From positions 10,492-74,491 of IMG/VR virus record IMGVR_UViG_3300042868_003052: DNA of 64,000 bases; one strand, 5' to 3'. The position numbers and the translations under genes are program-made. The notes under the pieces are model-generated. The model searched no databases. It was not told the origin of the DNA and saw only the letters and a program-made list of their open reading frames with translations. Shown here piece after piece: positions 4,022 through 55,867 of the stretch. Source of the DNA: a virus. Its lineage: Duplodnaviria > Heunggongvirae > Uroviricota > Caudoviricetes. Positions within the stretch are counted from its first letter, which is position 1; each line of letters starts with the position of its first letter.

Positions 4022-4041
4022 AAGCCCGTTAACTTAACCCT
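4022..4041 (+). promoter_or_regulatory. phage-specific promoter-like element, copy 1 (aAGCCCGTTAACTTAACCCT)
   Basis: One of six near-identical 17-21-nt elements, all on the + strand and all in intergenic positions upstream of strongly expressed genes. Core TTAACCCT is shared with the T3 RNAP promoter. Confidence 0.55.
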
Positions 4042-4121
4042 AAAGACGCCCCTCCGAATTGTATCTAACTATAATCAGTTAGTTATGTATTCATCATAAA
4101 TCAATCAATCTAAGGATAACT

Positions 4122-4649
4122 ATGATTCCACTTCTTTTAGCCCCTCTGATATCCCAAGGGCTAACTCTCATTGGAAACGCTGTGATGGCGAAAGGGAAAG
4201 AATGGGTTGAAGAGAAAACTGGTGTAGATGTCTCTAAAGCTGTGTTGAGTCAAGATGACCTCTTGAAACTTAAACAGTATGAGATGGAGCACGAGGAAGA
4301 GCTTATGAAGCTTCGTATTGAAGATGATAAGCTGGATATTGAAGCTTTCAAAATTGAAGCCAAAGATCGAGATTCAGCCCGTGAGCGAGACTCTGAATTC
4401 ATTAAACATGGTGTTAAAAACAACCGTGCTAACGTGATGTTCTTCCTCGCTGTTGTGATGGTAGGTCTTCTTGTGTGGATTGTGTGGAAAGACCCAGGTA
4501 TCAACGAGTATGTGAAGGGTATCTTTACTCTGGTGCTCGGACGATTCCTTGGCTATCTTGACAACATTTACAACTTTGAGTTTGGCACTACTCGTGGTAG
4601 CCAGAACAAAGATGAGACCATCAAGCAACTTAGTGGAGGTTCGAAATGA
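4122..4649 (+). CDS. holin-like membrane protein
   Basis: First gene after the promoter element. Hydrophobic N-terminus and a transmembrane stretch FFLAVVMVGLLVWIVW. Stop overlaps start of the M15 endolysin gene. Confidence 0.45.
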   Translation: MIPLLLAPLISQGLTLIGNAVMAKGKEWVEEKTGVDVSKAVLSQDDLLKLKQYEMEHEEELMKLRIEDDKLDIEAFKIEAKDRDSARERDSEFIKHGVKNNRANVMFFLAVVMVGLLVWIVWKDPGINEYVKGIFTLVLGRFLGYLDNIYNFEFGTTRGSQNKDETIKQLSGGSK

Positions 4650-4972
4650 CTCTAGGCCAACACCAAGAAGCCTTCTCTCGTGATCTTGTTAAGTTGCTCT
4701 CCAAAGCCTTTGAACTAGGCTATGAGGTGCGTATCGGCGAAGTCGAGCGTACTGTGGAGCAACAACAGATCTACATCAAGACAGGTCGCTCTAAAACAAT
4801 GGATAGCCGCCATTTGAAGAAGTGTGCAGCTGATCTTCACTTCATTAAAGGTGGAGTATTGTGTTACCCGCAAGAGCTTGGTACATATTGGGAAACCTTG
4901 TCGCCACTTAACTCTTGGGGTGGTAACTGGAACTCATTTAAAGATAAACCTCACTTCGAACGTAAAGTCTAA
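4646..4972 (+). CDS. endolysin, peptidase M15-family (L-alanyl-D-glutamate peptidase-like)
   Basis: Candidate zinc-ligand pattern H..SRHL..AADLH and C-terminal DKPHFE resemble T5-type M15 endolysins. Confidence 0.65.
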   Translation: MTLGQHQEAFSRDLVKLLSKAFELGYEVRIGEVERTVEQQQIYIKTGRSKTMDSRHLKKCAADLHFIKGGVLCYPQELGTYWETLSPLNSWGGNWNSFKDKPHFERKV

Positions 4973-4980
4973 GTAGACAG

Positions 4981-5003
4981 ATACCCTACCTCGTGTAGGG
5001 TAT
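4981..5003 (+). terminator. stem-loop (ataccctac-ctcgt-gtagggtat) after endolysin gene
   Basis: Perfect 9-bp inverted repeat directly downstream of the stop. Not followed by a clear T-tract, so this may be a processing site rather than an intrinsic terminator. Confidence 0.35.
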
Positions 5004-5007
5004 TAAA

Positions 5008-5036
5008 TTGCGACAAAGACAGTATCTTATATGAAA
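5008..5036 (+). promoter_or_regulatory. early-promoter-like motif copy 1 (TTGCGa..GTATCTTATATGA)
   Basis: Three near-identical copies (5008, 5724, 25187) plus one degenerate copy (38010). Spacing of TTGCGg to TATGAT is 16-17 bp, sigma70-like. Confidence 0.4.
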
Positions 5037-5046
5037 AGGAGGTACT

Positions 5047-5547
5047 ATGCAGTACTTAATCTGTCTACTCTGTTTCTTGATGCCGACGTTGCTTGATAAA
5101 AGCGAAGTTGTGTATGATGAAGCCAAGAATAGAGAAATTATATGTGTCATCACTAACGCTTATCACGAAGCTAGAGGTGAAGGTACGTATGGGATGAAAT
5201 TAGTTTCCACAGTGGCTTACAATCGCGCCAAGCAAAAGGGCGAGTCACTCTGCAAAACAATTTACAAACCAAATCAATTCTCGTGGACTAGAGCTAAAAG
5301 GCTACCAAAAGTACCTGATAGCTTCATTTACAGTTTCTGGCAAACAGCTAGAGATGTCGTAGATGGTGTCCAAGTTGTAGACGATAAGCACAAGCAAGTC
5401 TTCTACTTCCATGCCAAGCGCGTTAAACCGTATTGGCGTTCAGCAGTGCAACAAATCGTTGTACATAACAATCATGTCTTTTATGGAGCCTCAAATGAAA
5501 TTCGCAGCAATCCTTCTCGCTATCGTCTCAACAACCGTCTTGGCTGA
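5047..5547 (+). CDS. SleB-like cell wall hydrolase (Hydrolase_2 family) with N-terminal signal/anchor
   Basis: Motifs ICVITNAYHEARGE..VAYNR..QFSWT are typical of the SleB/Hydrolase_2 family. Hydrophobic N-terminus MQYLICLLCFLMPTLL. RBS aaaggagg. Confidence 0.55.
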   Translation: MQYLICLLCFLMPTLLDKSEVVYDEAKNREIICVITNAYHEARGEGTYGMKLVSTVAYNRAKQKGESLCKTIYKPNQFSWTRAKRLPKVPDSFIYSFWQTARDVVDGVQVVDDKHKQVFYFHAKRVKPYWRSAVQQIVVHNNHVFYGASNEIRSNPSRYRLNNRLG

Positions 5548-5722
5548 ACAGCGTATTGTGCAAACAGATTCGATCGGTAACGGTCAATATCATAAGCCTC
5601 AATATGTTGTTCGAGATGGTAAGATCTACCAATCGGACAGTATTGGCAATCCTCAGTACCATAAAGGTAGTTTGACGGTTGTTAAGACTACACCGAAATC
5701 AACTAACACCGCAAAGAAATAA
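5495..5722 (+). CDS. small secreted protein with internal tandem repeat
   Basis: Signal peptide MKFAAILLAIVSTTVLA. Repeats QTDSIGNGQYHKPQYV / QSDSIGNPQYHKGSL. Start at internal ATG 5495 with RBS ggag. Overlaps end of the SleB-like gene. Confidence 0.4.
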   Translation: MKFAAILLAIVSTTVLAEQRIVQTDSIGNGQYHKPQYVVRDGKIYQSDSIGNPQYHKGSLTVVKTTPKSTNTAKK

Positions 5723-5723
5723 C

Positions 5724-5752
5724 TGCGGAAATTTTAGTATCTTATATGATAA
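5724..5752 (+). promoter_or_regulatory. early-promoter-like motif copy 2 (cTGCGG..GTATCTTATATGATAA)
   Basis: Same motif as 5008 and 25187. Preceded by hairpin ccgca..tgcgg. Confidence 0.4.
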
Positions 5753-5786
5753 CAAGAAGTTATCTAACTAACCACAAGGACTTTAA

Positions 5787-6008
5787 ATGTTTCTCTTGAT
5801 CAAAATCGCATGTATCGCTGTCATCATCGCAATGTCTTTGGCTGCTATCAGTTTTCTGTTTCGGCTATTTGGCAGTATTGTGGCCTTCCGGTTCTGGTTT
5901 AAGAACAAAGATAAGATAGATGAAGCTGTAAAAGAATCATCTAACTTCTTTAAGTTCTGGAGTCAGTTCGACGAAGTTAACATTGAGACGAAAGGAGAGT
6001 CAAAATGA
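5787..6008 (+). CDS. small membrane protein (early region)
   Basis: 73 aa with one N-terminal TM. Preceded by conserved 5' leader AACTAACCACAAGG. Confidence 0.45.
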   Translation: MFLLIKIACIAVIIAMSLAAISFLFRLFGSIVAFRFWFKNKDKIDEAVKESSNFFKFWSQFDEVNIETKGESK

Positions 6009-6178
6009 AAGGATCTATGCGCATCATCGTAGGATTTCTTATCACTTACGGCTCTGTAGGTGGCATTGAGACAGGCACAGCTTCTCTGATCCAAGGTATG
6101 CTACTCGCTGCCGTTGGTTTGGCGTTGCTGTACTCTGGCGCAGTGGCTGCTACAAAAGGACAACTGATGAGGCTTTAA
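6005..6178 (+). CDS. small membrane protein (57 aa)
   Basis: ATGA overlap with upstream gene. Two hydrophobic segments. Not in the ORF track because it is under 60 aa. Confidence 0.3.
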   Translation: MKGSMRIIVGFLITYGSVGGIETGTASLIQGMLLAAVGLALLYSGAVAATKGQLMRL

Positions 6179-6244
6179 TAGCCGAAACCTAGGGCACTCA
6201 CAAGGTGCCCAATGGTCTTGTTCAACTAACCACAAGGGTTTAAA

Positions 6245-6481
6245 ATGTTTCCTAAATTCATCTTCTCAGCTATCGGTGGCCTTCGCACAATGTGGGCTTT
6301 CATCGTAGTAGGCGCAATCATTGCGTTCTATACAGCACCCTCTTTTCTGGGTGTGGTGTTCATCACAGCATCTGTGATTGGTATTGTCAAAGTTGCAGCA
6401 CTGATTGGGTTCGCAGTAGGTACTCTGATTCGGTTTATGCTCCCTATTAAGGTAGCGTTTGCTGGAAAGGAGGAGCTATGA
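6245..6481 (+). CDS. small multi-TM membrane protein, paralog A
   Basis: 78 aa, clearly similar to 6478..6723. Same conserved 5' leader as gene 5787. Confidence 0.45.
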   Translation: MFPKFIFSAIGGLRTMWAFIVVGAIIAFYTAPSFLGVVFITASVIGIVKVAALIGFAVGTLIRFMLPIKVAFAGKEEL

Positions 6482-6723
6482 AAATACTTAGTTCAGTGCT
6501 ATTTGGCATTAAGACAGCGTTGATAGTGGCAATCATTGGAGGCGTTCTAGCCTTCCTTGGTGCACCTGTCTTCTTTGGCTTGGTGATAATTACGTCTTCA
6601 GTTATCATGACTGTATGTGCGTATGTGATCGCTAGTTTTGTGATTTCAGCGCTCCTCCATTACTATAACAAAGTGGTGGCAGAGCGTTCACAAAATGGCG
6701 ATTCCAAAGACAGTACTCATTGA
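6478..6723 (+). CDS. small multi-TM membrane protein, paralog B
   Basis: 81 aa. AIIGGVLAFLGAPVFFGLVIITSSVIM matches VVGAIIAFYTAPSFLGVVFITASVIG of the upstream gene. Confidence 0.45.
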   Translation: MKILSSVLFGIKTALIVAIIGGVLAFLGAPVFFGLVIITSSVIMTVCAYVIASFVISALLHYYNKVVAERSQNGDSKDSTH

Positions 6724-7027
6724 AGGTTATTACTTCGTCGGAGACGCTGTAAAGGATAAGGCCAAAGAAAAGCATGAGTATCCAGACTTGTCTAGAACAC
6801 TAGTATCTGATAAGTTGTTTAAATTCTCTGCTAGGAGATTTAAACTTGCTGATCTGCATGTCTTGCCATTACAGCGTCTTTATGGTTCTTTTGTTAATTC
6901 TAAAGAGGTTCAAGGTGTTATTGACACAACAGGGTCGCTTATCCCGTTCTTCATTGATAGACAAAAAGTAAAAAAGCTACAAGAGCTGATACTGACTTCG
7001 AGAGATTCAACTGACGTACACTTGTAG
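6695..7027 (+). CDS. hypothetical early protein
   Basis: 110-aa soluble ORF, followed by terminator. Confidence 0.35.
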   Translation: MAIPKTVLIEGYYFVGDAVKDKAKEKHEYPDLSRTLVSDKLFKFSARRFKLADLHVLPLQRLYGSFVNSKEVQGVIDTTGSLIPFFIDRQKVKKLQELILTSRDSTDVHL

Positions 7028-7092
7028 TGTCGTGGCCACGGGCATTCCTTAACGGGAGTGTTCGTGGCCGAATTTGTTTTTATTTTTTGTTT
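7028..7092 (+). terminator. intrinsic terminator-like hairpin plus T-tract before RNAP gene
   Basis: Palindromic cgtggccacg .. cgtggccg followed by aatttgtttttattttttgttt. Confidence 0.45.
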
Positions 7093-7297
7093 GAGGTTAT
7101 ATGACAAAAACAGATTCAAAAATCCTACACTACGTTTTGTTGGTTGCTATACTCTTTTTCTTTTCAAAACTTTCTTTAGATGCAGTACTATTAGGGGCAC
7201 TTGCTATTAAACTTTACCAAGATCGTTTTCATGGTTAAGTTTTTAGTCGGCCTTTATTTGATCACACTTGTTCCAAAAATCATGAGACTAATCGACT

Positions 7298-9538
7298 ATG
7301 AGAAAAAAGCTGATAGCTTCACTCAAGGAAAGACTAGACACTGAAGTTGGCGTACAAAACCCTGTTAAGTTCTTAAAGAACTACGAGGTTGAAACATACG
7401 TTGACACAGTGATTGCTGTCTTATATCTATACACCAGACCAAAGAAAGGACTAAACAAACAATCAATATATCTTGCAGAAATGATCTGTGCAATAGGTCA
7501 TGCTGTCAGGAATAAAGTTAAGGTGAAGCGAGATTCAGCCCTAGCCGCCAAATCAGGTGCGTTCATATTGTACACATTTGAACTGTTTGAAATTGTACAA
7601 GTTGTAATGGGTCAAGCTTCAAACGGACATGGTGGTTACGTAGTCCATGTTCTGAATGAAGATGCCATCTCTGCAATGTGGAATCAACTTGACCCTGAAA
7701 AGGTTGAGAAGCTTCCTTCTGAAACACCTTACGAACCCTGGACAACTGCAAAACACCCAACAGGTGCATTGTTGGTGAAAACAGGTAACAAAGATGTTAT
7801 CGATTCGTTGACAGTTGAGACTCATCCTATTGTGTTTAATTGCATAAATAAAGCACAAGCTGTAGGTTGGAATATCAATAAGGCTGTCTTTGATTTACAT
7901 AGCTGGGCACTTAGAAATAAGACTGATGCTTTTGCTGAGATTTGGGAGTTACAAAATGCTGAAGCTAGAACCACGAAGATGCGGGAAGCTAAGTCGATTG
8001 GTGATATTGCTAAACGTTTTCTTAACAAAACGTTCTATCACTTATACTACTACGATTTCCGTGGCAGGAAATACCCAGCTTCTGCGTATCTACATGAACA
8101 AGGGTCTGATCTTGCCAGAGGACTTCTCCTTCGATCAGATAAAAAGGCTATTGGAAAGGATGGTTTCTTTTGGCTTCTCGTTTCCATCGCCTCAAACTGG
8201 GCAGGGGATTCTGGTAGAGCTGACTCAGCCAAGACCGATAAAATTCCGCTTTCTGAAAGAGCCGCTTGGGTCTTAGATAACGAGGAAATCATCTTGTCCT
8301 ATGCTGAATCACCTAAGGTAAATCAAGGGTGGATGAAAGCTGACAAGCCTTGGCAGTTCATCGCTGCATGCTTTGAGCTGAGTAAGCTGCGTATCTGGCA
8401 ATTTGAGAATGGTGGAGACTTTGAAAACTATGACTATGAGTCTCATCTTGAGTGCTATATTGACGGTTCAAACAACGGTAGCCAGCATCTCTCAGCATTG
8501 ACTAAAGACGATATCACTGCACCTCACGTTAATCTTGTGCCATTACCTTTGCCAGGTGACCTGTACAAGTATGTCGGTGATCACGTCTGGGAGACACTTG
8601 CACAGCGTAGAGAGTCTTTGTCACCAGAAGATATCAAAGCCGCTGAAGTGTTTGTAGATACATTGATCGACTTTAAAAAGAAGATCCATGAGACACAACC
8701 TAGAAGTGAGCAGCGAAAAGAGTTGGTAGCTCAGATTCAAAGCTTTAAAGATAAGAACTCAAAAATTATCGATAAAGCAGCGATCATCTATTGGATGCGA
8801 ATCAAAGACGCGAAGCATCGTCGCAAGGTTGTCAAGAGGAATGTCATGACACTCCCCTATGGTGGTACTGCCTACGGGCTTGGTCAGCAGCAGATTGATG
8901 ATGCTAAAAAGCACGGCATTGACCTGCTGATGCATATGGAGCACAAGTGGGGTGCTTTCCTCGGGCGTGAGATATACGAGGACTGCAAGACATCCTTAAA
9001 GCGTCCAATGCAGCTACTTAGTGTGTTTGAGAGAGCAGGTCGTGAGGCTGAGGCTCGCGGTGAGTTCCTGCACTGGAATGTACCTGTTACAAACTTTCCA
9101 GTAGTTCAGAATTACACCGAAGGTAAGGTAAAGAAGATCTGGATTCAGTATGGTCCACCGATTGGTGAACGTCTTAATACAGGTTACTTTATCAACACAC
9201 TACAACTGTTTATTTGTCATATTGAAGATCCGATACCTTCAAAGGGTAAACAGGCTTCAGGTGCTAGTCCTAATGCTATACATAGTTTGGATGCAGCACA
9301 TTTGGCAATAACAGTAGACGCTTGTGACTTTCCTATCACAACGATTCACGATAGTTTCGGTTCACTACTAGCAGATATGCCAGTGTTGTTCAGAACAATT
9401 CGTGAGACTTTTGTTCAACTGTATGAGGCTGATCCATTGACATCTATGATAGCTGATATTAGAGGTGACATCTCTAATGTGCAATTTGGCAATCTAGATA
9501 TCAAACTAGTCCTTGAATCGGAGTATTGTTTCGCATGA
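7298..9538 (+). CDS. T7-like single-subunit DNA-dependent RNA polymerase (RNAP 1)
   Basis: Contains T7-type motifs: YDFRGRKYP (T/DxxGR), RKVVKRNVMTLPYGG (motif B), IHDSFGSLLADMP (motif C). C-terminus ...ESEYCFA resembles T7 ...DFAFA. Confidence 0.9.
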   Translation: MRKKLIASLKERLDTEVGVQNPVKFLKNYEVETYVDTVIAVLYLYTRPKKGLNKQSIYLAEMICAIGHAVRNKVKVKRDSALAAKSGAFILYTFELFEIVQVVMGQASNGHGGYVVHVLNEDAISAMWNQLDPEKVEKLPSETPYEPWTTAKHPTGALLVKTGNKDVIDSLTVETHPIVFNCINKAQAVGWNINKAVFDLHSWALRNKTDAFAEIWELQNAEARTTKMREAKSIGDIAKRFLNKTFYHLYYYDFRGRKYPASAYLHEQGSDLARGLLLRSDKKAIGKDGFFWLLVSIASNWAGDSGRADSAKTDKIPLSERAAWVLDNEEIILSYAESPKVNQGWMKADKPWQFIAACFELSKLRIWQFENGGDFENYDYESHLECYIDGSNNGSQHLSALTKDDITAPHVNLVPLPLPGDLYKYVGDHVWETLAQRRESLSPEDIKAAEVFVDTLIDFKKKIHETQPRSEQRKELVAQIQSFKDKNSKIIDKAAIIYWMRIKDAKHRRKVVKRNVMTLPYGGTAYGLGQQQIDDAKKHGIDLLMHMEHKWGAFLGREIYEDCKTSLKRPMQLLSVFERAGREAEARGEFLHWNVPVTNFPVVQNYTEGKVKKIWIQYGPPIGERLNTGYFINTLQLFICHIEDPIPSKGKQASGASPNAIHSLDAAHLAITVDACDFPITTIHDSFGSLLADMPVLFRTIRETFVQLYEADPLTSMIADIRGDISNVQFGNLDIKLVLESEYCFA

Positions 9539-10032
9539 AAACTTATAAAAACTTTAGAGAGCTATATACTGGCTGGCAAGCTGGTGGTGTACCTCTTTGT
9601 GTGCTACAAGAAATGGCCATAGCACAACTAGGGTTGATTGATATTGTAGTGCCGCAAGGTATTGCACCATCTGTATCTCAGATTGAAGCCATTTTAAAAG
9701 ACTCTACAGAACCTCAAGAGTTCATGTATGAGCTAGGGGGTGATGTACACATCTGTGAGAACGAAGAAGACCTCAAGCAAATTGAAGGTGTTGACTTCGA
9801 GTGGGCTAAACAGCACAATGATAAGTGGCCTAATGCTACAGATCAAGGTATGTCTTGGGACTGCTGTGACTATGTCCTAAGTTCACGAAGCACAGGATGG
9901 GTAATCTTCTTATTGTGTACCAACAATGCTGGTGGACATACCTACTATGTTCCAGAGGCTCTGTGGCCTGCAGCAAGAGTGCTAGAGCACACCCGAAGCT
10001 CTGACACACCGTGGGGACACGCCAGTGCATGA
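9526..10032 (+). CDS. hypothetical protein
   Basis: 168-aa ORF. Alternative start ATG at 9535 overlaps the RNAP stop. Confidence 0.35.
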   Translation: MFRMKTYKNFRELYTGWQAGGVPLCVLQEMAIAQLGLIDIVVPQGIAPSVSQIEAILKDSTEPQEFMYELGGDVHICENEEDLKQIEGVDFEWAKQHNDKWPNATDQGMSWDCCDYVLSSRSTGWVIFLLCTNNAGGHTYYVPEALWPAARVLEHTRSSDTPWGHASA

Positions 10033-10083
10033 TACTCGAAAACTTTAGTAGACATACTAAGTTATTCACGTTATTGCTTATTC

Positions 10084-10104
10084 AAGCCCGTTAATTTAAC
10101 CCTC
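10084..10104 (+). promoter_or_regulatory. phage-specific promoter-like element, copy 2 (AAGCCCGTTAATTTAACCCTCA)
   Basis: Conserved element upstream of the SSB gene. TTAACCCTCA is identical to 10 nt of the T3 promoter. Confidence 0.55.
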
Positions 10105-10146
10105 AAAATGAGGGCGTCATCTCTTTTTAAATCAAGGAAAATTCAA

Positions 10147-10710
10147 ATGGCTATCATCAAAGACTGTGAACTGTGGTTCGTTAAAGCTGACCCAAAGCGT
10201 CCAAGCAACAAGTTCAATAAAGAAAACCCAACTTGGGAAACTCAAATCCGTACGACTTCTAAAGAAGTTAAGAAGTACTGGGAATCTCTCGGTTTGGCAG
10301 CTAAGGCTGTTGTACCTGACGAAGGTGCTCCATACTTCCGTGTCAACCTTCGCAAGAAGTCCATCAAGAACGATGGCGAACGCGCATCACCTGTCAAGGT
10401 TGTGAACGGTCACTTGGAAGATATCGATCCTAATACGATCGGTAACGGCTCTATTGGTCATGTTCGCATCTTCCAATACGAGTATGAGAAAGCAACTGGT
10501 GGCAAGGGTATTGCCAACGTGCTCATGGGTATCCAAGTTACAAAGCATATTGTCTACACTGCAAAAGCACGAGATGACGATTTCGGTATGACCGACAGCG
10601 AGACTATCAATCCTGAAGACGATGGTGATGATGCTCTAGCTGCTGTTTCTACACCGGCTGTTAAGACGCCAGTTGTCGACGTTAACAAGCGTCCTGACTC
10701 TGACTTCTAA
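10147..10710 (+). CDS. single-stranded DNA-binding protein, T7 gp2.5-like
   Basis: Start at internal ATG with RBS caaggaaa. Acidic C-terminal tail ending DSDF, as in gp2.5 (terminal Phe). OB-fold-like body. Confidence 0.6.
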   Translation: MAIIKDCELWFVKADPKRPSNKFNKENPTWETQIRTTSKEVKKYWESLGLAAKAVVPDEGAPYFRVNLRKKSIKNDGERASPVKVVNGHLEDIDPNTIGNGSIGHVRIFQYEYEKATGGKGIANVLMGIQVTKHIVYTAKARDDDFGMTDSETINPEDDGDDALAAVSTPAVKTPVVDVNKRPDSDF

Positions 10711-24981: not shown

Positions 24982-25135
24982 TAAACAAACACTTTAAACG
25001 CGCGTTTCTAGCCACTCCGTCTCGCGCCATTAGCTGCCCCTCAGCTGGTTTCAAGTGTCGCGTAGCGGCCAAACCTGCTAGGTAGGCGAGACCCGCTGTA
25101 GGTCAGCCCGTTGGCGTTCAGTGAATTTTCGGGGC

Positions 25136-25155
25136 CAACCCGTTAAATTAACCCT
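25136..25155 (+). promoter_or_regulatory. phage-specific promoter-like element, copy 3 (AACCCGTTAAATTAACCCT)
   Basis: Conserved element. Followed 45 nt later by an early-promoter-like motif. Both precede gene 25266. Confidence 0.55.
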
Positions 25156-25186
25156 GATTCTTCATTGATAGAGGCACGCAAATCGC

Positions 25187-25216
25187 TTGCGGAAAAAGCG
25201 GTATCTTATATGATAA
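25187..25216 (+). promoter_or_regulatory. early-promoter-like motif copy 3 (TTGCGG..GTATCTTATATGATAA)
   Basis: See 5008 and 5724. Confidence 0.4.
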
Positions 25217-25265
25217 TCAATAATGGTTATCGTATTCATGTAAATCAACTGATTAGGAAATCAAA

Positions 25266-36107: not shown

Positions 36108-36132
36108 TTGACACTTTACCACTAAATCAAAC

Positions 36133-36150
36133 CAACCCGTTAACTTAAAG
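36133..36150 (+). promoter_or_regulatory. phage-specific promoter-like element, copy 4 (variant AACCCGTTAACTTAAag)
   Basis: 14/17 core match. Directly upstream of gene 36158. Confidence 0.4.
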
Positions 36151-36157
36151 GAATTTC

Positions 36158-36385
36158 ATGTTTTCAAATTTCAAAGCAGCTCAACCTAAAACAGTTGAAT
36201 CCGTTCTGTCTCAATTCAATCAGGTCTGTAAAGATCTGGAAGAAATCCATGAACGTGAGATTGAAGTCAGTCGCCAAGCTGACGCTGAGATTGCACGTCT
36301 TGAGTCTCAGAAACAAGCAGCTGTAGAAGAAGCTAATCGTGCATTGCACACAGCTTCTAAAATTCGTTCCATGATCACTATGTAA
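36158..36385 (+). CDS. small coiled-coil protein
   Basis: 75 aa. RBS aaaggaatttcATG. Confidence 0.35.
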   Translation: MFSNFKAAQPKTVESVLSQFNQVCKDLEEIHEREIEVSRQADAEIARLESQKQAAVEEANRALHTASKIRSMITM

Positions 36386-37852: not shown

Positions 37853-37898
37853 CAGGTAGCCGCTAATATAATTAAAATAATTCAAGTGGCATTACCAT

Positions 37899-37918
37899 AA
37901 GCCCGTTAACTTAACCCT
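37899..37918 (+). promoter_or_regulatory. phage-specific promoter-like element, copy 5 (AAGCCCGTTAACTTAACCCT)
   Basis: Perfect consensus copy upstream of the terS/terL operon. Confidence 0.55.
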
Positions 37919-37939
37919 AGGACGTTCCTCCCTAGATTA

Positions 37940-38150
37940 TTACCCTTTAAGGATGTCTTTAGACGTTCATGTGGTTAGTATGTATCCTTAATAGATAATT
38001 AAGATATTATATCACTATATGATCATTAGTAGATAGTTAGTAATTAATCTTACTAATTAAGAATCTATTAATATCCTTAAATGAACCCTTAATAAGCGGT
38101 GAAGTACGATCGGGTGGACAGTGGGTCGTAGTGGGTGGGTCACGCTAAGT
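37940..38150. other. AT-rich repeat region with G-rich tandem repeats (candidate pac site / genome terminus)
   Basis: About 25% GC between 37960 and 38090, with repeated ttagta/attaat words and a degenerate copy of the early motif at about 38010. Followed by gtgggtcgtagtgggtgggtcac. Directly upstream of terS. Confidence 0.3.
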
Positions 38151-38195
38151 TGTTGATCCGTAACGAAATTTTTGAAAGCATTTGGAAGAGAAAAT

Positions 38196-43709: not shown

Positions 43710-45749
43710 ATGGCTACCAATAAAACTATCACAGCTACTTACAAAGTACCGCCTGTGAAGGCTTCTTCAGTTACTAAGGTAGCCAACTCTTCTGAAAAGA
43801 AGCTTAATGTAAACCTTAGTGGCTATGGAGAAGAGTGGATTCCAGAGGGTACGCTGTTCAAGTACATAGGTGAGAAGCCTGCAAGGGCTGTAGACTCTTT
43901 GCTGATCGCGTACTCTAAAGGCTTCATAGACTCTGGTCAACTGACAGATGCTTTACGTTTTGTTGCAAACAAGGGTGAACATGAGGCTTTAATCGTTGCA
44001 GAGAGTCTCTCAAAAGCTCTTTCAACTACATTGTCGAGTGAGACATCTACAGTAAGCGATGTTGCTTCTAAAGCACCTGCTAAGCTCGTAACAGAATTGC
44101 TAAATGCTGTTGAAATGCTGTTGTTTGTTACCTCAAAAGGTATTTCAGATAATAGCGTTGTCACCGAACAACTTGCAGGTTCTGTAAGTAAAGTTTTAGC
44201 AGATACAGGTGTCAGCACCGACAGTGTAGGCCTTGCCACTGCTAAACAAGCTGCTAATGAGACATCTTCAACTAGTGACGTTGCTTTGCGAAATGTTGGC
44301 AAAGCATTATCTGAGCTTGGAACAGTGTCTGAAATTTTCAAGCTTAGTGTAGGTATTACTGCACAAGACAGTGCTACCTATTCGGATGTGTCCTTTAGGA
44401 GTCTTGCCAAACTCTTCCCAGAAACTCTAGCAGTCAGCGAAGTCTTATCGACAATTGTTGACTACCAACGACAGCTCCTCGAAGATAAATATGCTGAAGA
44501 GTATTTCAGTCAAGATTATGTGCGTGCTGGTTTATCTGTTACGGACACTGTAGCTGCAGCTCTCAGCAAGGCACCCTTTATTGAGAACTCAAGTGTTGTT
44601 GACTCTTTCGCTGTCACGCTGACATTGTTGGCAAACGACAATGTGACGACAGCGGATGCAATGACCAATCTGCTAACTTTTGGCAGGGCATTGCAAGACA
44701 GTATCACAATGTCTGATGATTTCCTTGGTGCTGCAAACACGGATGATGATCAAACGGCTGCTGTTCAGAAGGTATTGTTAGACGCCCCAATTGTTCTAGA
44801 AGCTTTGGCTGCGTCTCTAGCTACCGCTAAATCTGAAATTGCGTACGGTAATGACTCTGTGAGCCTGTCGCCTACAAAAGCAATTACAGATAATTCTGTG
44901 CTTTCAGATAACTTAGTCAACGATACCACTAAGGGTGCAGTTGATAATACAAATCTTTCTGAGGTTATTAGCTTTCTACTTACTCTTGCTAGAGCTTTCG
45001 AAGATACTTCTGTACTCTCTGACGTAGCATCGTTTGGTGTACTCACAAGCGCAAGTGATATTACTTATCGCTCAGATACGCGTCTGCTATCTGTTAGCGT
45101 TGAAGTCATACCTGAACTGTATTTTGCTTCTGACTATGTATCAGGTAGCTATGCCGTCTCAGAACTTCATGTTTCAGACTCTCAAGAATTGAGTTCTTCA
45201 AAGTCACTAAATGAGCTATCAACTACAAGTGAAGGTTATCTAATTGCAATAGGGAAAGAGCAGGTCGAAACACTTGCAGCAACTGACCCCGTTGATTTAA
45301 AGATAACAACTCCAAAATCAGACCAATTGGTTTCAAATGACACAATGGTTAAAGATTACGCTCTTGTTGAATGTAGTAGTCTTTACTTTCTAGGGGATTA
45401 TGCCACACCTGGCTATATTGCAGCTGACGTTCAGCTCAACGACTTGATCCTTACTGAGAGTACGATTATTCGTAGTACGACTGAGAGTAACACGCTTACA
45501 GATACTGTTAACTTGCACACTGGGCGTTCAATAACAAGATTTGCAGTAGTGATGGATCGAAAGGTCTTAAACCCTACTAAAGGTATTGTTGAGAACTGTA
45601 CAATAACAGAGTCTTATGTAAGATCCATTGGTGTTATCAAAGATGATACAGCTAATATGGCTGAAAGCTTTCTTGCAAACAACCAGAACTACATGGCTAG
45701 CAGTTATACTGCACCAGGCTATGTAGGTTCAAACACAATAGGAAATTAA
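43710..45749 (+). CDS. fibrous structural protein (Ser/Thr/Ala/Val-rich)
   Basis: 679 aa, very low complexity, fibre-like. Confidence 0.4.
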   Translation: MATNKTITATYKVPPVKASSVTKVANSSEKKLNVNLSGYGEEWIPEGTLFKYIGEKPARAVDSLLIAYSKGFIDSGQLTDALRFVANKGEHEALIVAESLSKALSTTLSSETSTVSDVASKAPAKLVTELLNAVEMLLFVTSKGISDNSVVTEQLAGSVSKVLADTGVSTDSVGLATAKQAANETSSTSDVALRNVGKALSELGTVSEIFKLSVGITAQDSATYSDVSFRSLAKLFPETLAVSEVLSTIVDYQRQLLEDKYAEEYFSQDYVRAGLSVTDTVAAALSKAPFIENSSVVDSFAVTLTLLANDNVTTADAMTNLLTFGRALQDSITMSDDFLGAANTDDDQTAAVQKVLLDAPIVLEALAASLATAKSEIAYGNDSVSLSPTKAITDNSVLSDNLVNDTTKGAVDNTNLSEVISFLLTLARAFEDTSVLSDVASFGVLTSASDITYRSDTRLLSVSVEVIPELYFASDYVSGSYAVSELHVSDSQELSSSKSLNELSTTSEGYLIAIGKEQVETLAATDPVDLKITTPKSDQLVSNDTMVKDYALVECSSLYFLGDYATPGYIAADVQLNDLILTESTIIRSTTESNTLTDTVNLHTGRSITRFAVVMDRKVLNPTKGIVENCTITESYVRSIGVIKDDTANMAESFLANNQNYMASSYTAPGYVGSNTIGN

Positions 45750-49798: not shown

Positions 49799-49816
49799 TA
49801 ACAAAGAAAGTAAACC

Positions 49817-50326
49817 ATGTTTAATTTAACGATTTACTCCAATTTAATTTCGGTGCTTGAGTACAATCCAGATACCGGAATCTTCAATTGGCTGATAAGC
49901 CCTAAAAGAGGCATTCCTGCTGGCTCTGTAGCTGGCTTCTTGAATAATGGTTATATCCAGATTTCGTATAAGCGAAAACATTACAACGCTCACACACTCG
50001 CGTGGCTTTACTGTAATAAAAACTTACCATCTGGTATTTTAGATCACATTGACTGTAACAAGTCTAACAACCGAATCAGTAATTTACGAATTGTTGATCA
50101 CACTTTGAATCGCATAAATACGTTAACTCGCCACGATAATACTTCTGGATACAAGGGTGTGTCTTACGACAAGAAGTCGAAAAAATGGCGTGCTCAAATC
50201 AACCATGACAAGCAGCGTATTTATCTAGGTGTATACGAGTCACCAGAAGAAGCTTTTGAAGCCTACTGCGAAATAGGTAAAGAGCTCTATGGTGAACATT
50301 TCAACAATGGTGAAAAGAATGATTAA
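49817..50326 (+). CDS. HNH_3 + AP2-domain homing endonuclease
   Basis: LDHIDCNKSNNRISNLR (HNH_3) and GYKGVSYDKKSKKWRAQI..RIYLGVYESPEEAFEAY (AP2 domain). Confidence 0.7.
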   Translation: MFNLTIYSNLISVLEYNPDTGIFNWLISPKRGIPAGSVAGFLNNGYIQISYKRKHYNAHTLAWLYCNKNLPSGILDHIDCNKSNNRISNLRIVDHTLNRINTLTRHDNTSGYKGVSYDKKSKKWRAQINHDKQRIYLGVYESPEEAFEAYCEIGKELYGEHFNNGEKND

Positions 50327-53300
50327 TTCAAATACACAGATTTTTGATAAGGCACTAGATCGCGCAGCCATGGTGCGTTTGTACGAAAGACGCGTCAACG
50401 GTAAAGTGGAACTTGTCATTGACGGTCATACCGTTAGGGTCGATAAGTTAATTCGAGAAGCCAATCTGTCTCAGAAAGGCTTTGAGAAACTCCGTGATGC
50501 GATTGATCTAGAGCTTCAATCAACATACAAAGAGGTGTTCAACACTTCAAAGAGATCTTTGCTAGATCTTGTCAACGATCAAATAAGTTTTACTTATCAG
50601 AACATTGAGTCTGCTATAGGTAAGATTTGGAAACCAAGCACACCGCAAAGGCGTGTTTCAGATGAGATTGTACTAGAGCGTCCACTTGCTGGTGATAAGA
50701 CTCTAGCTGCAGGTTGGGCTGGTGTCAGCGCCAACGAGAAAACTAGACTTGAGAGTGTGATTCGAAAAGGAATTGCAGAAGGTTCTACAGTAGAGCAAAT
50801 TGCCTTAGAGGTGCGTCGTGGTAATGTACATACGATAACACGCTCACAAAGCAAAGCATTGGTCGTTACTGCAATTACTAGTGTAACAGCACAAGCTGAT
50901 CACGAAGTCTACCGCGCCAACGAGAAGGCAATTCAGGGGTGGCAGTATGTGGCCGTCTTGGATGCCAGAACCACGCCCTTGTGCTCGCACCGAGACGGGC
51001 ATATCTACCCCATAAGGGACACGGCGCACTTGCCTCCGGCCCACTTTAACTGTCGCTCTACAACAGTTCCCGTGTTTAAATCCTGGGAGGACATTGGTAA
51101 GCTAGAGGGTGTTGCTCAAGTTAGACGTAGAAACCTTCAAAACCTAAGTAAGAAGCAGATTGCCTTTTATGATGGTCAGACACCACTACGTGAGACTTAC
51201 AATGACTGGCTTGCTCGCCAGACAACAGATGTGCAGCTAAGACACCTTGGCGAATACTCTAAAGTTGAGTTGTTTAGATCAGGTCAACTGACTGTTGATA
51301 AGTTCACTAATCCTGACGGTAATTCGTTAGGTATTCGTGAGCTGAGAGCCATGACAGACTCTGGCTATGACTTGCCAAATGACACAAAGAAGTTTGCATC
51401 TGCAAAAGCTAAGCTTGATGCTATGCAACTTGGAGCAGCCTCACCTGATGATTTCTTGTCAGATGAGAAGCTTAAGAAAACTTTGGTAGATTACTACTTG
51501 CTTCAGTCAGGCGAACTTGACGGTACGCTCTCGATGACTAACTATCGAGGTACTCTGTTACATGCAAAGAAGGCTGCTAAGACTAGAGTATTGTCGTCTC
51601 CACCTAGAGAAGATCAACTCAAGTTTAACCCAGTCACTGGAAGATATGAAGACATCCGTCTGTATCAACCGAATATTGGTGTACATAGTAATAACCGTCG
51701 TTTGCTTGAACAATCTGAAGTATTGAAACAAGCTGACAAAGACTTTATCATGTCTATTGATGCATCTCTTGAAAACAAGATGAGCATTAACGAACGTGCT
51801 GTTGTACTTGATAACCTACGTATTGTGTTTACACGATATCGTAATAATCCAGAACCTTGGGTTAACTTTAAGGCTGTTGTTCAAGCACAGATTAAGTTTG
51901 ATGTGATGAACGTATCTGATGCCATTGAAACACAACTCCGAAAAGACAGTGACCCGCTGAAACGTCTACTGCAAGATAACTATATTGATCCAGTGCTCGG
52001 TCCTGTACAGCTTGATGATTTACACAATAACTTCATCAAGAACATTACGGCTAAGAACCGATGGGAAGATAGTACTGCACCGAAGATTGCAAAAGAATTG
52101 CGAGATACTTTTGATGCAGTGATTCTTGAGAAGAACCCGTTTATTTGGAAACGAATTGATGGTCGTGACATGCAGCAGTTTTATCTGCGCTTTGCACATC
52201 GTTTGAGCTTAGCTGACAGCCCTGATCGTGATCAATTTGCTGTGGCTCTGGGTCGTGACCTTTACAATCTTGCCAACTTCAACGGTGATCGTAGAAAGTG
52301 GTATGATTTAGGCATGGCAATCTTGGATGATACCAAGGTTAACAAGCTATTCAAGATTGAGACTTTTGGTGTACAAAAACGACGAATGAAGAGCCGCCTT
52401 AGTGGTTCTTACTTTGGCCCTTATTATGACACACTTGCTTACAACATCCGTGTTACAGACCCTCGAATTCAAGAGTACGCTCAACTGACTCGTAAGGTTG
52501 ACTTAGGTCTGCGAGTAGCTGTCTTGAATGATTCAAACAAACTTGTGTTTAGAGAAGGCTTCAAAACCTACTTCGTAGATCGTGGAATCCTCGGTTTAGA
52601 AGACACTCGTATACCAATCACATCGACATCAAGCTTTAGTGATTTCCCAGAAGAGTTTGTAGATAAAAACATGGTGGATGCGCTTAATTGGGCATCAGAG
52701 ACAAAATACAAAGTGGATGAGGACTATTTTGACTTCATCAAGAAGCTGCTGTATTTTGAGGATGATAAAGGTAAAGCACAATACTACAATGAGTTGAATG
52801 AGTATCGTAAATTCATCTCAGCTCGTGGTGATGCATATGAACGTTTCAAAGCAATGGAATGGTTACGTGCAAAACGTGCAGCATTCAGTAATCATCCTTT
52901 TATCGATCACCGTGCTCGTATCTATGACAGAGGCTTAATTAGTCCACAGTCTGGTGAGACATTCCGTCCATTCTTGAATACCGCTGTTGAGCGTGACTTC
53001 AGCAAAGATGGCTATGACAACTTGCAAGATCAAATTGGTGCTTTTCTTGGTGGTCACAGTGATAAGCTTGAAGGTGCCTTTAACTCATTGACAATCACAG
53101 GTCGTCAGAAGATTGCTAGAAAGTATCGTGATGAGATGGTCAAGCTTGGCTATCACATGCGTAGGGCTAAGCCTGGTGATGTTCGTGCTGTACTTGAGTC
53201 TGAACTGACTGGCATGATTGATGGTGAAGAGCAAGGTAAATTCTTTCGATTTGCCATTGAGATGTCAAAGATTGATGAGTTCTTGGAGGGTAACTACTCT

Positions 53301-53569
53301 GCAAGAAACCTCGAACGACTGTCAAACTACAAGATAGCACTAGCACTAGAACAGGATGCTTCGTCCTCTGGTGCACAGATTATTGCACTGACTACTCGAA
53401 ACAAAGAGCTTGCTGAGCTTAGTAATGTAGTACCTACTACACAAAAGCGAAGGCTTTATGACGAGATTGCAGCGTCAACATACAATGACCCTGAATTTCG
53501 AAAGCTCAACCTGAAGCTAGGTCTGAACGAAAAAGACTTGCGTAAAGCTGCTAAAGCGCAGAACATGGT
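50289..53569 (+). CDS. MuF-domain / T7-like RNA polymerase fusion (RNAP 2), exon 1
   Basis: N-terminal 270 aa carry the Phage_Mu_F motif (WQYVAVLDARTTPLCSHRDG..PPAHFNCRST). Downstream carries RNAP motif A DASSSGAQI (T7 DGSCSGIQH) and the first half of motif B RKAAKAQNMV. Confidence 0.75.
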
Positions 53570-54431
53570 AGAATGTTGCCATGTATAAACCTCGTGAATT
53601 CAGGGAAAATCCCAAAGGGACAATCCTGAGCCAAGCTTAGACAGTAATGTCTTTGAAGGTGCAACGACTAAGACAAACGGTCCATATCGGATTATGAAGT
53701 CTGTAGAAATCATGCCGATTTCGAAGCGCGGGGACGTACTATTCCTTAGGGATGCAGACGTAAAAGATAGTCTAATCTATACAGTAATGTATAGCAGGAG
53801 TTAGCGTGAATTACGAAAAGCACTATATAGCTTTAATTGAAAAATACGGCACTACTAGTAGACCGTTTAAGGGTTATCATGAACGTCACCATGTCCTTCC
53901 TAAATGCATGGGTGGTAAAGATGTTTACGATAACCTGGTGTACTTAACGGCGAGATGTCACTTATTGGCTCATTGGCTGTTGATGAAAGCTTTTCCAGAA
54001 GTAAAAGGTTTAAAAATTGCTTATGCAACAATGTGTACGCGTGATGGTATAAAGCTGTCGCCCGTGATGTATCAAATTGCAAAAGATGCAGTTAGCGGCG
54101 ATAACTCTATGCTTGCGAGGGCTGTTGTGACACCTTTAGGTTCATTTCCTACAGTGGCTGCAGCGGCGATAGCGCACGGTGTATCAAAAGCCACTATTTC
54201 AAAGAAGGCAGGGAGCACTAGTGTACTTCATAAAGGCTATCACTGGGTAGACCATATAGTAAAGGGTGATGTAGCGGATGGTCGAAACGCGCATCACTTG
54301 AGGAAAGGTGTTAGAACACCTTTTGGAAATTTCGAATCGACACGTGAAGCTGGTAGAGTGCTTGGCATTAATCACTCTACAATCACAAAGCGCATAAAGC
54401 GTGGTGATGACGGCTACTCCTATATGAAATG
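53570..54431 (+). mobile_element. group I intron (about 862 nt) containing an HNH homing-endonuclease ORF
   Basis: Exon 1 ends in U (53569), intron ends in G (54431). P1: exon ACAUGGU (53563-69) pairs with intron GCCAUGU (53578-84) including a U.G pair at the splice site. P10: intron GAAUGU (53571-76) pairs with exon 2 ACAUUC (54433-38). Splicing restores RKAAKAQNMV-TFYG, equivalent to T7 motif B RSVTKRSVMTLAYG. Confidence 0.7.
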
Positions 54432-54432
54432 A
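53806..54432 (+). CDS. HNH homing endonuclease with C-terminal NUMOD-like DNA-binding repeats (intron-encoded)
   Basis: GTG start with SD aggag. HNH motif YHERHHVLPKCMGGKDVYDNLVYLTARCHLLAHW. HTH-like repeats GVSKATISKK / LGINHSTITKRI. Confidence 0.75.
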   Translation: MNYEKHYIALIEKYGTTSRPFKGYHERHHVLPKCMGGKDVYDNLVYLTARCHLLAHWLLMKAFPEVKGLKIAYATMCTRDGIKLSPVMYQIAKDAVSGDNSMLARAVVTPLGSFPTVAAAAIAHGVSKATISKKAGSTSVLHKGYHWVDHIVKGDVADGRNAHHLRKGVRTPFGNFESTREAGRVLGINHSTITKRIKRGDDGYSYMK

Positions 54433-55815
54433 ACATTCTACGGTGCTGGTGAACGAACTGGCATCATGAACGTAGAAGGTAAGCTGGCTAAAGCTCTTGG
54501 AAAAGATGGTAACACACTTGTTGTCAAAGCTGCAGATCGAGATGTCGTACTGAATGAAATCAGTGCAAGGGCAGCTAGGTATGAAAGGTTTGACCCAGAG
54601 ACAGCCGCTGAACTGAAGCAGTTACGTCAGGATGTTCGTGATGTGTTTAACAAAGGTATTGACCCTGGTGATGACATACTTGAACAGCTTTACTTTCTTG
54701 AACCTAAGACAAAAGAGTTGGTTGAGAAACTATCTCATTCTTATGATCGAGTTGTGACACCTGATGACTTCAAGCAGATTGCTCAGATTATGAGTGAGAA
54801 GCTTAGAGAGCAAGTACCTATCCTTAAAGACTTCACAAAGTTCTTTGGTCGCCTTGCAGAAGATTATCTTGCTTCGGCAAAACCTTCTAACAGCATGTTT
54901 GATTGGAAGACAATTGCAAAGTTAACACTACGTGGTAGCAAGAAGAAAGGCTACCGACTTCCAGACTATGTGAGTGAGATGCTCGGTCTGAAAGCTGGAG
55001 AGCCTGTCTCTGAAAAGCTACTGAAGCGGTTATCATTTTGGAAACCTGACAGTACACTAGCAGACTTGTTGTTTGGTGTTAAATCACCTGATAACAGACG
55101 TACTGGTGCAAAATTCTTGAAATTTGATATTGCACAAGTTAAGGATGTTTATGAGCTAGAGATTTTCTACGCTAATAAATTACCTAAGAGCTGGACGAAT
55201 GTACCTTGGGTTAACTTTGATGGTAAGACCATTGAGCAAAACTTTACACAAGCTTTTGAAGAGCGTTTAGTGTATAAGAATGCTGATGGTGAGTGGACTA
55301 CCAACATTTTGCAAGTACCTCAGAAGACTGAGGCTACGTGGTGGGAACAAGTGATTAATAAATCTGGGAAGATTAATGACATCGCTGATGCATCGAAGGC
55401 TAGGACAGCTTTTGCTGTTAACGGTAACCATTCAAATGATGCTGTTATTGTTAAGAAGTTTCACTTGTGGGGTAGAGCCTCTGGCACACCTACATCTACC
55501 ATTCATGATGCGTTCTTTGCCAATGCTGCTGACATGCTTAAAGCTAGAGATGCCCTCCGTGGTATCTATGCTGAGACTCTGAGTAAGAACGTCATTTTGA
55601 TGACACTTGAAGAGATGAAAGCACGAGGCTTGCCTAAAGAGCTTTACGACAAATATTTAAATGAGGCTATTGAAACAGGTCTAATACCTATCCCTGGGCG
55701 CTCTAGGGTGGGTGGTAAACTTCTAAAGGATTCAGATATTCTGACACCGTCTGATATTCTTAAGAAAGTACCAAAAGGTTTTAATGAAGATTACGGTTGG
55801 TACGGCGTTGGCTAA
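54432..55815 (+). CDS. T7-like RNA polymerase (RNAP 2), exon 2
   Basis: In-frame continuation TFYGAGERTG.. has no start codon of its own. Contains NGNHSNDAV (T7 FVHSQDGS) and motif C IHDAFFANAADMLKARDALRGIYAE (T7 IHDSFGTIPADAANLFKAVRETMVDTY). Confidence 0.75.
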
Positions 55816-55847
55816 AGTTAAGGGAGTCTGCGAAGATTCCTTTAACT

Positions 55848-55867
55848 AAGCCCGTTAACTTAACCCA
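55848..55867 (+). promoter_or_regulatory. phage-specific promoter-like element, copy 6 (AAGCCCGTTAACTTAACCCa)
   Basis: Upstream of the scaffold and capsid genes. Confidence 0.55.

Follow-up and report, generated by a model that had tools for sequence, protein, structure and literature searches.

A conserved element at operon heads of an uncultivated siphovirus-like phage, a probable promoter for a phage-encoded T7-like RNA polymerase

A conserved element of about 20 nt, here termed M1, stands in six places in a 64,000-nt stretch of tailed-phage DNA (Caudoviricetes; IMG/VR record IMGVR_UViG_3300042868_003052, positions 10,492–74,491; hereafter 'the window', whose own numbering is used throughout). 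We infer that M1 is a promoter for a phage single-subunit RNA polymerase (RNAP), with a probability of about 0.8, because it is co-oriented with the genes, because it lies in non-coding sequence heading the same orthologous gene blocks at more than 150 sites in related phages, and because its variants track the specificity loop of a T7-like RNAP of 746 amino acids (RNAP746). That RNAP746 is specifically the enzyme that reads M1, as a middle or late promoter, is fairly likely on the same comparative grounds. The original prediction, made from the window alone, had proposed a 'T3-like' promoter for a phage single-subunit RNAP; the comparative evidence strongly supports the core of that reading, while 'T3-like', taken as family membership, does not hold. 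It had also left open which of two phage RNAPs uses the element, and we provisionally assign M1 to RNAP746.

M1 in the window and in related phages

A search of the window with AGCCCGTTAACTTAACCCT, allowing up to three mismatches, returned exactly five matches, all on the + strand (4023, 10085, 25137, 37900 and 55849, with 0–2 mismatches), as against none in 100 dinucleotide-preserving shuffles (mean 0.00, maximum 0). A position weight matrix (PWM) built from these five full copies detects a sixth, partial copy at 36134 (AACCCGTTAACTTAAagga), which scores 15.8 versus 29–33 for the others and reads AACCCGTTAACTTAA, then AGGA. The − strand of the window holds no comparable match, its best PWM score being 10.5. 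The repeat also emerges without a model: CCCGTTAANTTA is the window's most repeated 12-mer with one wildcard in a de novo count, and the left 13-mer of M1, CCCGTTAANTTAA, occurs exactly six times, always on the + strand. Together the five full copies and the partial one give a window consensus of (A)A(G/A)CCCGTTAA-N-TTAACCC(T/A), about 20 bases long. The six copies are:

4022–4041, + strand: M1 copy 1, aAG CCCGTTAACTTAACCC T; 81 nt 5′ of g4122 (transmembrane protein), then g4646 (Peptidase_M15_4 endolysin); proposed start A4036/A4037
10084–10103, + strand: M1 copy 2, aAG CCCGTTAATTTAACCC T; 5′ of the gp2.5-like single-stranded DNA-binding protein (SSB) gene (10153–10710) and the replication block
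25136–25155, + strand: M1 copy 3, cAA CCCGTTAAATTAACCC T; in tandem with a copy of a second motif, M2 (see below), 5′ of g25266
36133–36148, + strand: M1 copy 4, partial, cAA CCCGTTAACTTAA, then AGGA replacing CCC; 10 nt before the ATG of a 75-aa open reading frame (ORF; 36158–36385), with an SPFH protein gene after it
37899–37918, + strand: M1 copy 5, aAG CCCGTTAACTTAACCC T; heads the 250-nt leader of terS-like/terL, portal and the virion RNAP gene
55848–55867, + strand: M1 copy 6, aAG CCCGTTAACTTAACCC A; 33 nt past the virion RNAP stop codon and 5′ of the scaffold (55953) and major head (56672) genes

All six fall in gaps between + strand genes (4019–4121, 10033–10107, 24982–25265, 36108–36157, 37853–38171 and 55816–55952), and the real genes of the window are all on that strand. 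Thus the six positions originally reported for the element were correct to within one base, as were its strand, its intergenic placement and, wherever the genes could be annotated, the genes named downstream of it (endolysin with a transmembrane protein, SSB, g25266 without a family, the 75-aa ORF with SPFH, terS-like/terL, and scaffold/major head). The motif search that had been proposed at the time likewise found the element absent from the − strand and not inside ORFs at a similar frequency. One weak M1-like site does lie within a gene (45285–45300, + strand: GAC CCCGTTGATTTAA-AGA inside ORF 43710–45749, lacking the CCC end, like copy 4); it may be a chance match (about 0.3 expected) or an internal promoter. 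Another repeat, the 12-mer AGTAGACAGATA (4972, 55923), is at chance level.

The element is widespread in metagenomic relatives. Scanning IMG/VR with CCCGTTAANTTAACCC recovered at least 120 stretches, many of them on contigs that also carry relatives of RNAP746, which are encoded in 70 loci, many on M1-bearing contigs. Pooling the window with the related loci (numbered with an L below) gave 160 distinct M1 sites with at most one mismatch; 151 of these are not covered by a same-strand ORF, and the other nine are marginal ORF calls. M1 sites in the relatives point with the genes, and the first ORF past the site was orthologous to the window's scaffold gene (41 sites), SSB (39), g25266 (14), the terS-like gene (13) or g4122 (11; this class comprises a holin-like gene and an endolysin). 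Loci fetched through their proteins rather than through the motif, and hence unbiased for M1, amount to 1.57 Mb when oriented with their genes; they hold 104 distinct M1 sites on the + strand (64 of them exact) and nine on the − strand, eight of which have three mismatches.

Across the family the consensus is (G/A)-A-(A/C)-CCCGTTAA-N-TTAACCC-(T/A). Of 157 sites, 153 have an A two bases before CCCG, a position that lay outside the search pattern. Sharp edges bound the conserved block, which spans about 20 nt, and nearly no information remains past the final T/A (157 sites), so that the lack of conservation downstream of CCCT, first noted in the window, extends to the relatives. By comparison with known single-subunit RNAP promoters, the block is of their size. 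In L001, L004, L012, L016, L017, L020, L039 and others, two M1 copies stand about 110 nt apart before the scaffold leader, often behind an extra small gene inserted after the virion RNAP gene; the pairs resemble tandem promoters of the capsid block. EBPR siphovirus 1, with 55% G+C, has (T/A)CCGTTnnnTTAACCC at three orthologous places.

Several further features lie close to M1. The left half of copy 1 forms a 7-bp inverted repeat with the adjoining upstream sequence (TTAACGG aagc CCGTTAA, 4015–4032), and in four loci (L011, L025, L081, L112) the palindrome ACCGTTAACGGGT lies about 35 nt 5′ of M1. A C-rich box (GACGCCCCTCC, GACGTTCCTCCC) follows about 10 nt past M1 in the lysis-cassette and terS copies (4042–4060, 37919–37940); it is strongly kept in relatives (..cCCCC..), with G-runs in the equivalent position in EBPR siphovirus 1 and phage DSS3_VP1. 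A G-rich stretch (38113–38145) within the 250-nt terS leader could pair with the C-rich box.

RNAP746, its specificity loop and the start site

The proposed reader of M1 is encoded between the first two copies:

7298–9538, + strand: RNAP746, T7-like single-subunit RNAP of 746 aa, with catalytic motifs and a T7-type specificity loop (residues ~615–645)

RNAP746 matches Pfam RNA_pol (E = 6.5e-63) and phrog_414 (E = 4.7e-114). Aligned to T7 RNAP, it has motifs A, B and C, the specificity loop and the C-terminal ...CFA, and its loop residues R625, N627 and Q636 correspond to T7 R746, N748 and Q758. Relative to T7 RNAP it lacks about 140 aa at the N-terminus, and it is some 25–30% identical to T7-group enzymes. 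Among 5.8 billion proteins searched, the only relatives found are metagenomic and no more than 72% identical. One relative in NCBI (P0033, 71% identity, partial) is labelled Flavobacterium sp.; the label, attached to a binned metagenome contig, hints only weakly at the host. In ten loci (L152, L154, L155, L156, L159, L160, L163, L166, L168, L169) the RNAP746 match spans 2.9–3.3 kb versus 2.2 kb, which suggests insertions, either introns or inteins with homing endonucleases.

The TTAA core of M1 is fixed, and the most variable part of the element is its left end (CCCG), which differs in a genome-specific manner: GCTG, for example, recurs in all three sites seen on contig 3300048839_001082 and in both of those in L124. 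We therefore aligned the RNAP746 segment matching T7 residues 744–758, which yielded 41 distinct loop variants. Among the 34 with a canonical loop, (S/N/K)(T/S)GY(Y/F/H), 30 retain CCCG and the other four are one base off. In contrast, none of the seven non-canonical loops (STGHY, STGRY, STNYF, PCNHY, KSNHY, SNNYY, ASGYS) retains it, their genomes showing GCTG, CTGG or CCCTG, or no recognizable M1 (Fisher p = 1.5e-5, kinship ignored). The varying residues come directly after the equivalent of T7 N748, the residue that in T7 and T3 reads promoter positions −11/−10. This pattern is what would be expected if RNAP746 recognized M1 directly as duplex DNA, its specificity loop reading the left end (CCCG and its neighbours).

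The right end behaves differently. Its variants keep everything up to TTAA and then replace CCC, by TGA in L150, L151 and L159 (TTAATGA) or by AGG in window copy 4 (TTAAAGGA), as expected if CCC is initially transcribed sequence. A second indication comes from the sites before SSB:

10100–10114, + strand: small hairpin CCCTC-aaaat-GAGGG, with the 3′ end of M1 copy 2 as its 5′ arm; it recurs with compensatory changes at SSB-class sites of relatives

When the 38 sites of this class are folded, 20 show a short hairpin that has CCC(TC) as its 5′ arm. The arms start at index 12–13, almost never earlier, and occur in compensated forms (CCCTC/GAGGG, CCCG/CGGG, CCCAT/ATGGG, AACCC/GGGTT); an exact 5-mer complement is present in nine sites versus 0.2 in shuffles. 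T7 late mRNAs carry a 5′-terminal stem-loop of this kind, and the hairpin suggests that CCC is transcribed. Given the behaviour of the right end and the SSB-class hairpins, the start that we favour lies in the second TTAA, at its A(A). Transcription from M1 would then probably begin at the TTAA|CCC junction, with CCCG at about −12 to −9, the AT-rich TTAA-N-TTA as the melting region and CCC(T) as the preferred first transcribed sequence.

Two other registers were considered. A T3 register, with the start 8 nt past CCCT, is not favoured: the covarying CCCG would fall at about −24 to −21, and no conserved melting block follows. A promoter on the bottom strand (GGGTTAA... as the start) was rejected: all genes are on the + strand and the upstream sequence for such a start is unconserved.

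M1 was originally described as having a T3-like core. The match itself is correct, in that copy 2 carries TTAACCCTCA, identical to positions −15 to −6 of the T3 promoter consensus. However, only AATTAACCCT(CA) is common to the two, the T3/T7 CACTA(A/T)A-GGGAGA block is absent, the polymerase is the distant one described above, and the conserved block of M1 reaches 7–10 nt further upstream than a T3-register promoter would. More generally, the T7/T3/SP6 consensus from −17 to +6, with (C)ACTA(T/A)A at −7 to −1 and G-rich +1 to +6, is not conserved in M1, judged over 157 sites. Nor does M1 contain sigma-70 hexamers (−35 TTGACA and −10 TATAAT at a spacing of 16–18 bp), and sigma-70-like sites were not enriched over shuffles in either region searched (1–20 kb, 32 versus 38 expected; 24.9–38.2 kb, 26 versus 22).

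A number of points weigh against M1 as a promoter of RNAP746, or against the start proposed for it. The covariation statistic ignores phylogeny, and divergence of RNAP746 may go along with divergence of the virion RNAP in the same genomes; few genomes give both enzymes. The T7-group hallmark, a TATA-like −4 to −1 with G-rich +1 to +6, is missing, and a start of A then CCC would be unusual for a T7-like enzyme. By analogy with T3 (AATTAACCCT at −17 to −8) or with Pelagibacter phage Kolga (AAATTAACCTATAGGA), the start could instead lie 4–8 nt past CCC, where the sequence is unconserved. M1 copy 1 also lies 3.3 kb upstream of the RNAP746 gene, and read-through from M1 may contribute to its expression. 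Lastly, the core of M1 is formally palindromic: GTTAA-N-TTAAC is an 11-bp palindrome with a free central base.

The palindrome raises the question of whether M1 might be bound by a dimeric protein of the phage, as an operator or activator site, with another polymerase doing the transcribing. The inverted copy of the left half near copy 1 and in some relatives (TTAACGG/CCGTTAA) fits this idea, but we consider it quite unlikely. Conservation within the palindrome is asymmetric, with 10 and 12 deviations at A6/A7 versus 0 and 1 at their partners T10/T9, and the flanks are asymmetric too (A-N-CCC versus CCC-T), with C-runs on both sides of the core on the same strand; both features argue against a symmetric dimeric binder, and on the asymmetric conservation we rejected the palindrome as an operator. 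Two-fold symmetric half-site conservation with free orientation, as for a dimer's operator, was not found in M1; instead its orientation follows the genes strictly (the 104 versus nine sites above). In addition, sigma-70-like promoters are unenriched in the window, and variants of the left end track the RNAP746 loop.

Could M1 act instead in read-through RNA, as an RNase processing site, a stabilizer or, between operons, a sequence-dependent signal at which a phage RNAP pauses or terminates? Its frequent position only 1–30 nt past the stop codon of the upstream gene would suit such a role, as would the pairing of its 3′ end with downstream sequence in one gene class (SSB), and T7 RNAP does have a sequence-specific (class II) termination signal. 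Yet no structure is conserved across the copies, and an Rfam 15 scan of the window at the gathering score matched no family at M1 or M2, its only hit being a group I intron (53560–53794). Covariation with the loop of a polymerase that reads DNA would be hard to explain at the RNA level, and tandem M1 copies ahead of the structural genes with the highest expression are more in keeping with promoters. We regard an RNA-level role as very unlikely.

It is more improbable still that M1 marks strand-specific DNA features outside transcription, for example site-specific nicks or the junctions at which mobile gene cassettes home or recombine. Site-specific nicks are described for T5- and phiKMV-type phages; M1 is long, strand-specific and present in few copies, and this family is rich in homing endonucleases and introns. 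However, M1 heads the same orthologous operons across very divergent genomes and covaries with the RNAP, and we found no link between M1 and insertion boundaries.

A second motif and a putative virion RNA polymerase

The window encodes a second single-subunit-type RNAP, called as two ORFs (a MuF-RNAP at 50289–53588, then a 449-aa ORF at 54466–55815), which we interpret as follows:

50289–53569, + strand: virion RNAP exon 1, an N-terminal MuF head-morphogenesis domain and RNAP palm/fingers, ending ...KAAKAQNMV
53570–54432, + strand: group I intron (Rfam RF00028 core at 53560–53794) carrying an HNH/NUMOD1 homing-endonuclease ORF (53806–54432)
54433–55815, + strand: virion RNAP exon 2, TFYGAGERTGIMNVEGKL... 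to ...DYGWYGVG; Pfam RNA_pol above cut-off

Intron-less relatives read ...KAQNMV|TFYGAGERTGI..., and the window has the same two halves at 53569 and 54433. Judged from these junctions, the two pieces belong to a single gene that a group I intron interrupts within polymerase motif B (NMV|TFYGAG). Both exons match phrog_414, and in phage DSS3_VP1 the MuF-RNAP is one continuous gene of 1463 aa. The MuF-RNAP is apparently packaged in the virion and injected. Exon 2 matched no chain among solved RNAP structures, either as a single sequence or as an 18-sequence profile, and so the control covariation test for the virion RNAP rests on a manual alignment next to motif C.

A repeat finder brought out a second motif family, M2, with three exact core copies in the window:

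5006–5037, + strand: M2 copy 1, TTGCGACAAAGACAGTATCTTATATGAAAA; directly past a hairpin and 10 nt before the Shine–Dalgarno/ATG of a Hydrolase_2 gene
5721–5752, + strand: M2 copy 2, CTGCGGAAATTTTAGTATCTTATATGATAA; the nearest conserved motif 5′ of the RNAP746 gene
25185–25216, + strand: M2 copy 3, TTGCGGAAAAAGCGGTATCTTATATGATAA; 46 nt downstream of M1 copy 3

More than 100 copies occur in relatives, and 87 distinct related sites give the consensus aaa.TGCGGAAAAAnnGGTATCTTATATGA(a/t)a. M2 usually lies past an intrinsic-terminator-like hairpin, 15–50 nt before the Shine–Dalgarno sequence or start codon; no conserved hairpin was found within M2 itself. Of the first ORFs downstream of it, 74 of 84 have no homologue in the window. 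Its relation to RNAP746 is constant: in all 37 related loci with enough upstream sequence, the nearest motif 5′ of the RNAP746 gene is M2, at a distance of 0.7–5 kb, never M1, while M1 comes directly after the RNAP746 gene, before SSB. This arrangement points to a two-step scheme in which M2 would be used before RNAP746. Within the M2-headed unit of the window lies one further candidate signal:

7033–7070, + strand: strong terminator-like hairpin with a 17-bp stem and a T-run; the small membrane-protein genes headed by M2 lie before it and the RNAP746 gene after it

This hairpin is likely an attenuating terminator that would set the level of RNAP746.

We consider M2 to be probably an early promoter, read by the injected MuF-fused virion RNAP. 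In L171 and L173 M2 is still exact, with RNAP746 at only 40–45% identity, its loop altered and M1 lost; and M2 is absent from Kolga, whose MuF protein is without the polymerase part. The opposite assignment, with M1 as the promoter of the MuF-fused virion RNAP (50289–55815) and M2 as that of RNAP746, is unlikely but deserves consideration. The virion RNAP is also single-subunit, by the Pfam and phrog matches just given; where M1 is variant (L218, L215 and L264, for example), some residues adjoining its motif C differ as well; and the ...TATATGA end of M2 looks at least as T7-like as M1. On the other hand, this would have the genes for capsid, terminase and lysis transcribed by the injected enzyme as soon as infection began, and RNAP746 would serve only about three sites and need its own promoter in order to be made. 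Moreover, L200 has a variant M1 (AACTG) even though its virion-RNAP segment before motif C is identical to the window's, and M2 is invariant in L171 and L173 despite the divergence of RNAP746 there.

With M1 assigned to RNAP746, the proposed course is as follows. As long as no RNAP746 has been made, transcription would run from M2, driven by the injected MuF-RNAP or, with lower probability, by the host RNAP with a phage factor, and the M2 unit would express RNAP746, whose gene stands at the unit's end. From the six M1 sites RNAP746 would then transcribe the holin-like gene and endolysin, the SSB/replication block, g25266, a small block at 36.1 kb, the genes from packaging to the virion RNAP, and the scaffold, capsid and tail genes. 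The result would be a two-polymerase cascade.

The gene g25266 is the only one with M1 and M2 in tandem. It encodes 184 aa with no family match, an internal repeat and an Ala/Lys-rich tail, and several strong hairpins follow it. The tandem is kept in L043, L044, L076, L109 and L114. Such an arrangement suggests very high or constitutive expression of g25266.

Known systems, relatives and implications

How does this compare with characterized phages? With the T7 group (T7/T3/SP6/K11) M1 shares a block of about 20 bp, a T7-like RNAP in the same genome, several co-directional intergenic copies at operon heads, and genome-specific changes that map to the part presumed to face the specificity loop; copy 2 and many relatives share 10–12 nt (AATTAACCCTCA) with the T3 consensus. 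In contrast to promoters of that group, M1 has neither the CACTA(T/A)A melting block nor G-rich +1 to +6, ends in TTAACCC(T/A) and has an AT-rich, palindromic core, and the phage has a siphovirus-like genome of 65–80 kb, outside Autographiviridae. With N4 the shared features are two phage single-subunit-type RNAPs, one of them apparently packaged, and two conserved promoter classes, the second polymerase's gene lying in a unit headed by the other class. The parts differ, however. N4 early promoters are DNA hairpins (5–7 bp stem, 3-nt loop), whereas neither M1 nor M2 has a conserved one; DNA folds of the six M1 copies gave no common hairpin, four of the six folding no better than shuffles, which argues against an N4-type promoter. 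The N4 virion RNAP has about 3500 aa and no MuF domain, while here it is MuF-fused; N4 RNAPII is a heterodimer needing cofactors, while the second enzyme here is full-length and T7-like; and N4 late genes use the host RNAP, while here M1 precedes the structural genes. By analogy, M1 looks like part of a T7-type promoter/polymerase pair within an N4-like two-polymerase cascade, and its resemblance to T3 looks superficial.

Among deposited phages the closest are EBPR siphovirus 1 (60% identity, MuF-RNAP), DSS3_VP1 and DSS3_PM1 (Naomviridae; about 30%, both polymerases) and the Pelagibacter phages Kolga and Aegir. A megablast of 25 kb of the window against 50,697 phage records gave no match, and thus there is no close cultured relative. 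EBPR siphovirus 1 and the two DSS3 phages share the gene order and the polymerase pair (in DSS3_VP1, a MuF-RNAP and a T7-like RNAP). The operon heads of DSS3_VP1 carry ATAGG(G)TnCGTTAAAG(A/C)GGGG, in 14 copies on the + strand. This phage also has an M2-like GGCATCTATAATGA (GAGAAAACTAAGGCATCTATAATGA, twice) directly past the tape-measure terminator, heading a unit with a cell-wall hydrolase, small genes and the RNAP gene. In contrast to M1, the operon-head motif of DSS3_VP1 (ATAGGGTGCGTTAAAG-type) shares only CGTTAAA with it, a G-run replacing TTAACCC, and its polymerases are only about 30% identical to those of the window. The published description of DSS3_VP1 and DSS3_PM1 does not discuss their polymerases or promoters (PMC8323127). 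A literature search of incomplete coverage, and so yielding absence of evidence only, found no paper on M1 or M2, on the polymerases or transcription of Naomviridae, or on a MuF-RNAP fusion.

Two further regions of the window bear on its gene map. A long, tape-measure-like ORF on the + strand from about 61115 runs off the end, so that the window lacks some 10–15 kb of the genome's tail genes; the five − strand ORFs beneath it (61.2–63.8 kb) are probably spurious. No tRNAs were found in the window. In the scaffold leader, a hairpin TGAG-ttgta-CTCA lies directly 5′ of the Shine–Dalgarno sequence (55949–55961; also 55883–55894). It is kept in L194–L264 with compensatory stems and a (T/C)TGT(A/G) loop, often with a second similar hairpin before it (agaTTGTAtct), and may be a translational operator or a processing site. 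Hairpins with a YTGTR loop are not enriched window-wide (two on the + strand versus six on the −) and are conserved only in the scaffold leader.

If M1 is read as we propose, it would be the promoter of an uncharacterized branch of T7-like RNAPs that comes with natural specificity variants (CCCG, GCTG and CTGG, with the accompanying loop changes). Natural loop/promoter pairs of this sort are what designers of orthogonal transcription parts seek, and they offer a natural experiment on how the loop reads DNA; M1 and M2 with their enzymes would amount to two new orthogonal polymerase/promoter pairs. The two motifs also give a simple handle with which to delimit operons and temporal classes in hundreds of metagenomic contigs. 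Taken together with the MuF-RNAP, they yield a map of transcription that can be tested across a large environmental phage group, one that includes relatives of the abundant Naomviridae, whose DNA contains dU. Tentatively, and at slightly short of even odds, this widespread 65–80 kb siphovirus-like family, itself related to Naomviridae, may transcribe its whole genome without the host RNAP: a MuF-RNAP from the capsid would read the near-invariant M2 and thereby express a T7-like RNAP, which would read M1 with its unusual A-CCC start, an N4-like strategy assembled from different parts. The biological value of the finding would lie in this implied host-independent transcription in a large uncultivated phage group.

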